64,000 nucleotides of DNA from Escherichia coli. GTDB taxonomy: Bacteria; Pseudomonadota; Gammaproteobacteria; Enterobacterales; Enterobacteriaceae. The stretch lies in assembly GCF_003334405.1 (NCBI RefSeq), contig NZ_QOWM01000003.1. One strand, given 5' to 3'. Shown one piece after another: positions 62,228 through 62,302 of this stretch (position 1 is the first letter of the stretch; every line of letters starts with the position of its first letter). Position numbers and translations under genes: made by a program. The notes under the pieces were generated by a model, which had not been told where the DNA came from, ran no database searches, and worked only from the letters and a program-made list of their open reading frames with translations.

Positions 62228-62237
62228 AATATTAACC

Positions 62238-62260
62238 ACTTTAGTTACAACATACTTATT
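62238..62260 (-). other. TerB replication-terminator (Tus-binding) site, overlapping the tus promoter
   Basis: Reverse complement of 62238..62260 is AATAAGTATGTTGTAACTAAAGT, the 23-bp Ter sequence with the conserved GTTGTAAC core; 11 bp upstream of the tus start codon. Confidence 0.92.
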
Positions 62261-62302
62261 TTATAGCACAGTCGTGGTGACTTGACCATCGTGCGCGTAG
62301 TG

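Follow-up and report, generated by a model that had tools for sequence, protein, structure and literature searches.

TerB, a Tus-Binding Replication Terminator, in the rstB–tus Spacer of a Non-K-12 Escherichia coli Chromosome

The closest described counterpart of the locus considered here is TerB of Escherichia coli K-12 (MG1655 1684226..1684248), a 23-bp Tus-binding terminator of the replication fork trap that lies in the spacer between rstB and tus. In the published mechanism, C(6) is the docking base that flips into a pocket of Tus to give a locked complex (PMC8707476; PMC4499146), and the helicase encircles the lagging-strand template carrying G(6) while the leading-strand template carrying C(6) is excluded (PMC4499146). 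TerC is the innermost barrier for the clockwise fork, and TerB, the second non-permissive site that this fork meets, serves as a back-up behind it (PMC13220808). TerA, TerC, TerD, TerE, and TerG share the Tus-binding core with G(6) and GTTGTAAC as well as the lock mechanism but, unlike TerB, lie away from tus and are without an operator role. In the published sequences, TerA differs from TerB at position 4 only. Beyond E. coli, conserved Ter sites with C(6) have been described beside tus across the Enterobacterales (Toft et al. 2021, PMC8707476), and Ter1 of the type I fork traps defined in that work occupies the same place in the same orientation, with the same invariant core from GC(6). In the type I traps of Edwardsiella, Dickeya, Proteus, and Yersinia, the tus-adjacent Ter is the innermost and primary barrier, whereas E. 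coli belongs to type II, in which TerC has been added inside the tus-adjacent Ter (PMC8707476). The RTP–Ter system of Bacillus subtilis is likewise a polar fork barrier and terminus trap with a terminator near the terminator-protein gene (PMC13220808). Its protein and DNA sequences are unrelated to those of Tus–TerB. RTP binds as dimers to bipartite sites and is not known to use a base-flipping lock of the C(6) type.

The DNA analyzed here, a 64,000-nt stretch of a non-K-12 E. coli chromosome (hereafter the window), has the same 23-mer, 75-bp spacer, Tus, and flanking rstB and fumC as K-12 and shows no difference from it at the site. AATAAGTATGTTGTAACTAAAGT occurs in the window as an exact 23-mer, in single copy and with 0 mismatches, at 62238..62260 on the - strand, where an earlier note made from the sequence had claimed an exact Ter; in the numbering used throughout, Ter position i is window coordinate 62260-(i-1), such that position 1 is 62260 and position 23 is 62238. 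The conserved core named in that note, GTTGTAAC, occupies 62244..62251 (Ter positions 10-17), and comparison with the degenerate Ter consensus GNRNGTTGTAAYKA gives 0 mismatches at 62242..62255 (-), the only perfect match in the window. The base at position 5 is A and that at position 9 is T, both lock-competent; TerF and TerH, which do not lock, are altered at position 5 (A.T), and the weak TerI and TerJ at position 9 (T.A) (PMC8707476), and every position known to separate functional from pseudo-Ter sites (5, 6, and 9) carries the functional base in the window. We found no evidence in the sequence contradicting this reading and put the probability that 62238..62260 (-) is TerB, the Tus-binding terminator of the E. 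coli replication fork trap, at roughly 0.97.

The identity of the site brings with it a direction. The earlier note had proposed checking that the position-6 cytosine falls on the expected strand and had ascribed a defined fork-blocking polarity to the window, and position arithmetic and base read-out give the expected outcome: the - (tus-sense) strand quoted in the note carries G(6), and its partner C(6), the lock cytosine, is on the + strand at 62255. The non-permissive (blocking) face is the 62260 end, towards rstB, and the permissive face is the 62238 end, towards tus. With C(6) on the + strand, a fork that comes from rstB and heads for tus, towards lower coordinates (the clockwise fork of K-12), would be stopped at the 62260 end, C(6) being on its leading-strand template, and a fork that runs towards higher coordinates (fumC through tus) would reach position 23 first and pass. 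Going by published work on the identical sequence, monomeric Tus would bind TerB asymmetrically. For the blocked fork, DnaB would run 5′ to 3′ on the - strand, the lagging-strand template holding G(6), and its unwinding of positions 1-6 would free C(6) on the excluded + strand; the freed cytosine would then dock in the Tus pocket, locking the complex and halting the fork before tus. A fork arriving from low coordinates would instead meet the permissive face and displace Tus. The + strand GC skew of the window is +0.023 and is positive in 12 of 15 8-kb sub-windows, which implies that the usual fork runs from low to high coordinates and meets the permissive face. This support for the polarity is modest and agrees with the K-12 map; together with the logic of the fork trap, it indicates that TerB is oriented permissively for the usual fork of its region.

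Much of this behavior has been observed directly. Because the 67-nt TerB barrier oligonucleotide of a single-molecule study of polar arrest (PMC4499146) is identical to window 62218..62284, and the Tus protein is identical as well, the polar arrest, its dependence on C(6), and the ChIP-seq occupancy have been published for exactly this DNA and protein. Tus ChIP-seq coverage is highest at TerB, and attempts to place a non-permissive TerB at an ectopic position failed, such a site being inviable (PMC8707476). The same paper cites single-molecule work in which about half of the forks were not arrested at non-permissive TerB. Fork arrest at TerB is thus occasional in normal cells, since about half of the forks escape it and most are caught at TerC.

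The spacer and its neighboring genes place the site precisely. The earlier note had given its span as 62228-62302, which contains TerB and is in fact the entire 75-bp rstB–tus spacer, longer than Ter itself. On one side lies tus (61298..62227, - strand), whose ATG is at 62227..62225 and whose product is the terminus site-binding protein of 309 aa; on the other lies rstB (62303..63604, - strand), the upstream gene, which encodes a sensor kinase and ends in a TGA at 62305..62303. Ter position 23 is separated from the tus ATG by 10 bases, GGTTAATATT (62237..62228, - strand), and the A of ATG is the eleventh. The distance of 11 bp to the tus start codon given in the earlier note therefore agrees with the published wording, "11 bp upstream" (PMC8707476, Fig. 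1 legend), if the A is counted, and is one more than the number of intervening bases. The leading GG of this gap (62228..62237) together with Ter positions 20-23 (AAGT) forms a weak Shine–Dalgarno-like AAGTGG. The open reading frame list starts tus at a GTG at 62239, inside Ter (313 aa). We rejected this start in favor of the ATG at 62227 because, over its entire length, the 309-aa product aligns with MG1655 Tus and the Tus chains in the PDB. That the adjoining gene is tus, as had been supposed, is clear from the match of its product to PDB entries 1ECR, 2EWJ, 2I05, and 2I06 (E = 1.5e-208, residues 1-309), to NCBIfam TIGR02648 (rep_term_tus; 550 bits against a cut-off of 178), and to MG1655 Tus (309/309 residues, 100% identical). 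The product has an intact cytosine pocket, with E49, I79, F140, H144, G149, and R198 all in place. In the structural literature (Mulcair et al. 2006; Elshenawy et al. 2015), I79, F140, H144, and G149, together with E49 and R198, form the cytosine pocket and clamp. Every base of the spacer agrees with that of MG1655, in which TerB occupies 1684226..1684248, and the RefSeq records carry no annotated feature in it. TerB owes its recognition to published work and not to genome annotation.

The second role attributed to TerB, that of an operator through which Tus controls its own gene, raises the question of where the tus promoter lies. The tus-sense strand of the spacer reads ...ATGGTCAAGTCACCACGACTGTGCTATAAAATAAGTATG... 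and contains a candidate extended -10 element, TGcTATAAA (62260..62268, - strand), whose hexamer TATAAA (62265..62260) ends with its last A at Ter position 1. In a looser custom scan, this hexamer matches TATAAT at 5/6 positions, with TG one base upstream. A standard promoter scan found no tus promoter in the spacer, and it missed TATAAA because its rule demands T at hexamer position 6. The 17-bp spacing from this -10 leads to a candidate -35, TGGTCA (62283..62288, - strand), with 4/6 matches to TTGACA; the assignment is weak, and the element is poorly conserved across species. Across species, positions -10 to -2 relative to Ter show moderate conservation (A at -4 in 75%), as do the TGnTATA bases; within Escherichia these bases are invariant. 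Transcription of tus would be predicted to start ~7 nt downstream of the -10, inside Ter, where bound Tus would occlude it. By covering this likely start together with the last part of the -10, Tus would repress its own synthesis, in line with the literature. PMC8707476 and PMC8347550, citing Roecklein et al. 1991/1992, place TerB within the tus promoter, describe it as the site of Tus autoregulation, and have tus expression rising without Tus or without TerB. A TG-extended -10-like element ending at Ter position 1 fits this published autorepression, and the autoregulation asserted in the earlier note has a published basis and a candidate promoter element abutting the site.

A scan of species-representative genomes with the Tus protein gave 80 Enterobacteriaceae loci (Escherichia, Citrobacter, Salmonella, Enterobacter, Klebsiella, Raoultella, Kosakonia, Lelliottia, Kluyvera, and others) whose Tus is 69-98% identical, and every one of the 80 has a Ter-like site on the tus-sense strand within 150 nt upstream of tus. 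Ter and the start codon are 6-10 nt apart in 76 of the 80, 18 nt apart in three, and 27 nt apart in one. The four longer gaps belong to Intestinirhabdus alba and Kluyvera species (L019, L061, L073, and L074) and may mean either that the true start codon is another one or that bases have been inserted. We aligned the 80 sites with that of the window (81 sequences) by anchoring on GTTGTAAC. Positions 5, 6, 8, 9, 18, and 19, all outside the anchor, are 100% invariant in 81/81 sequences, position 7 is T in 93%, and position 20 is A in 90%; positions 1-4 and 21-23 and the 60 nt upstream mostly carry <1 bit of information. The constrained block is therefore AGTATGTTGTAACTAA, Ter positions 5-20 (62241..62256, - strand), in which positions 5, 6, and 8-19 are 100% conserved across the 81 sequences, positions 10-17 being forced to match by the anchor. 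This pattern points to strict purifying selection on the Ter core, in this position and orientation, across the 80 other species. Just beyond the permissive end, the two Gs at +24/+25 occur in 76% and 71% of species, and their conservation, together with the 6- to 10-nt gap, suggests that the ribosome-binding site abuts that end of Ter.

Within Escherichia, variation is restricted to positions 1-4, 7 (T or G), and 21-23. Position 7 (62254) is polymorphic in E. coli and in the genus, with T in the window and K-12 and G in several strains (L087, L089, L090, and L002-L004 compared). TerC and TerG also have G at this position. In strain YDC107, a 1-nt insertion falls in the flank formed by positions 1-4, and positions 5-23 stay in register. 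A 1.5-kb fumC–tus–rstB query was present in 5,425 of 5,426 complete E. coli genomes and was covered to at least 80% in 5,422, such that the rstB–tus–fumC arrangement is found in 5,422/5,426. A megablast search with the 75-bp spacer matched 3,007 genomes (2,173/5,426 at ≥99% identity). The figure of 3,007 is an undercount rather than a sign of absent sites, because megablast requires a 28-nt word and position 7 varies between T and G. One strain departs from the common arrangement. In E. coli KTa005 (L088, NZ_CP147084.1 2212828..2213007), the upstream sequence diverges fully from 37 nt before Ter position 1, beginning at the first base of the -35-like TGGTCA, with Ter and tus unchanged; rstB is not annotated beside tus in this genome, and the break, which lies just upstream of the tus promoter, appears to mark an insertion or rearrangement.

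The arrangement of the spacer raises the possibility that Tus–TerB does more than stop forks and repress tus. The rstB gene stops 42 nt short of Ter position 1, its transcription runs towards the non-permissive face, and a scan of the spacer found no terminator-like hairpin, the RNA fold being no better than that of shuffled sequences (z = +0.55). Polar blocking of RNA polymerase by Tus–Ter was reportedly described by Mohanty et al. in 1996. We therefore speculate, tentatively and as an idea that is rather less probable than its converse, that Tus–TerB additionally acts as a polar RNA polymerase roadblock against read-through from rstB, insulating tus and keeping transcription from stripping the barrier. 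Such a role would be of no consequence if rstB were weakly expressed or if its transcription ended by Rho-dependent termination. In addition, KTa005 does not have rstB beside tus and yet has Ter and tus unchanged, which indicates that the module is independent of rstB. A slightly more doubtful extension is that Ter accounts for almost all of the tus mRNA leader, and with it some of the ribosome-binding site, with Tus as a polar roadblock to read-through; it is suggested by the near-universal placement of Ter 6-10 nt before tus on the tus strand and by the lack of a terminator after the upstream gene. If this were true, fork arrest, promoter repression, and transcriptional insulation would be coupled at one site.

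A rival reading would regard TerB as essentially nothing but the operator for tus autorepression, with arrest in vivo negligible and TerC stopping the clockwise fork first. The location of TerB in the tus promoter and the autoregulation through it, as stated in PMC8707476 and PMC8347550, are in keeping with this, and promoter geometry alone could explain why Ter keeps its place and orientation beside tus in 80/80 species. Promoter geometry fits less well with the invariance of positions 5 and 6 in 81/81 sites, since these are the positions linked to the lock. Literature quoted in PMC8707476 has the position-5 change in TerF and TerH abolishing the lock, and the invariance of both positions argues for selection on fork arrest and not just on operator binding. 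Significant fork pausing at TerB in vivo, attributed to Duggin and Bell in PMC8707476 and noted also in PMC13220808, likewise speaks against a pure operator, as does the role of the tus-adjacent Ter as innermost and primary barrier in type I traps (PMC8707476). We thus consider an operator-only function very unlikely and retain TerB as a fork barrier that is also an operator.

The specificity of the match itself was assessed against the rest of the window. No second AATAAGTATGTTGTAACTAAAGT-like site was found in the window at ≤3 mismatches, and at the same tolerance 0 of 100 dinucleotide-preserving shuffles contained a match. The consensus is more permissive: at ≤1 mismatch GNRNGTTGTAAYKA gives 3 matches in the window against 1.9 expected, which is chance level. 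Two of these, at 40135..40148 (-) and 41932..41945 (-), have 1 mismatch each and were rejected as Ter sites, one being without G(6) and the other having the GTTGTAA core broken. The bare GTTGTAAC octamer is not diagnostic, because it occurs in 5 copies in the window against 1.8 expected. The other four copies (1998, 16262, 38675, and 45779) were dismissed as chance matches, with 10-11 mismatches to TerB in the Ter register. TerB is the only Ter site in the window. That it is itself a chance occurrence or a non-functional pseudo-Ter, as the surplus of GTTGTAAC copies might hint, is vanishingly improbable in view of the exact 23-mer that shuffles do not reproduce even at 3 mismatches, the 10-11 mismatches that set the four other copies apart, the retention of position and orientation in 80 species, and the functional bases at positions 5, 6, and 9.

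TerB also bears on where the window lies. The window corresponds to the E. coli chromosome from rstA/rstB to valV (inverted with respect to MG1655, whose equivalent segment is 1.682-1.746 Mb; identity across the 64 kb is ~99.9%) and is not identical over its full length to either MG1655 or strain 720632, the differences, indels among them, being far from TerB. The anchoring to the replication terminus region claimed for it holds in that the segment is placed on the MG1655 map, and needs qualifying in that it lies outside the innermost TerA–TerC trap and is not the terminus proper; the window is wholly on the origin-distal-to-dif side of TerB. Several features elsewhere in the window are recorded here as separate observations. 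In rsxC, a 96-bp tandem repeat (32 codons) spans 37487..37912 (-) in 4.4 copies with 89% match, and the window has one extra 96-bp unit relative to MG1655 and strain 720632, which amounts to an in-frame rsxC repeat-number polymorphism between strains. By alignment offsets and annotated spacer lengths, the ydhP–sodB spacer (~10463..10523) holds ~73 bp that are present in the window and strain 720632 and absent from MG1655, possibly a small repetitive extragenic element. At the very start of the window, 1..74 (-) is a complete tRNA by Rfam (70 bits), corresponding to valV, tRNA-Val(GAC), in MG1655; ARAGORN, at odds with Rfam at this sequence end, reported no tRNA in the window. Finally, between purR and ydhP, 8666..9056 (+) is a full-length match (396 bits) to the enterobacterial sRNA family STnc550 and takes in the small open reading frame cydH (ynhF) with the sequence on either side of it.

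Published work already covers TerB itself, how far it lies from tus, the lock formed by C(6), the polarity of the site, its part in autoregulation, and its conservation beside tus in the Enterobacterales. For the chromosome considered here, TerB serves as an orientation mark, in that it fixes the window on the E. coli chromosome and shows which direction of replication is tolerated there. More generally, it is a case of a short functional DNA site that can be recognized from sequence alone.
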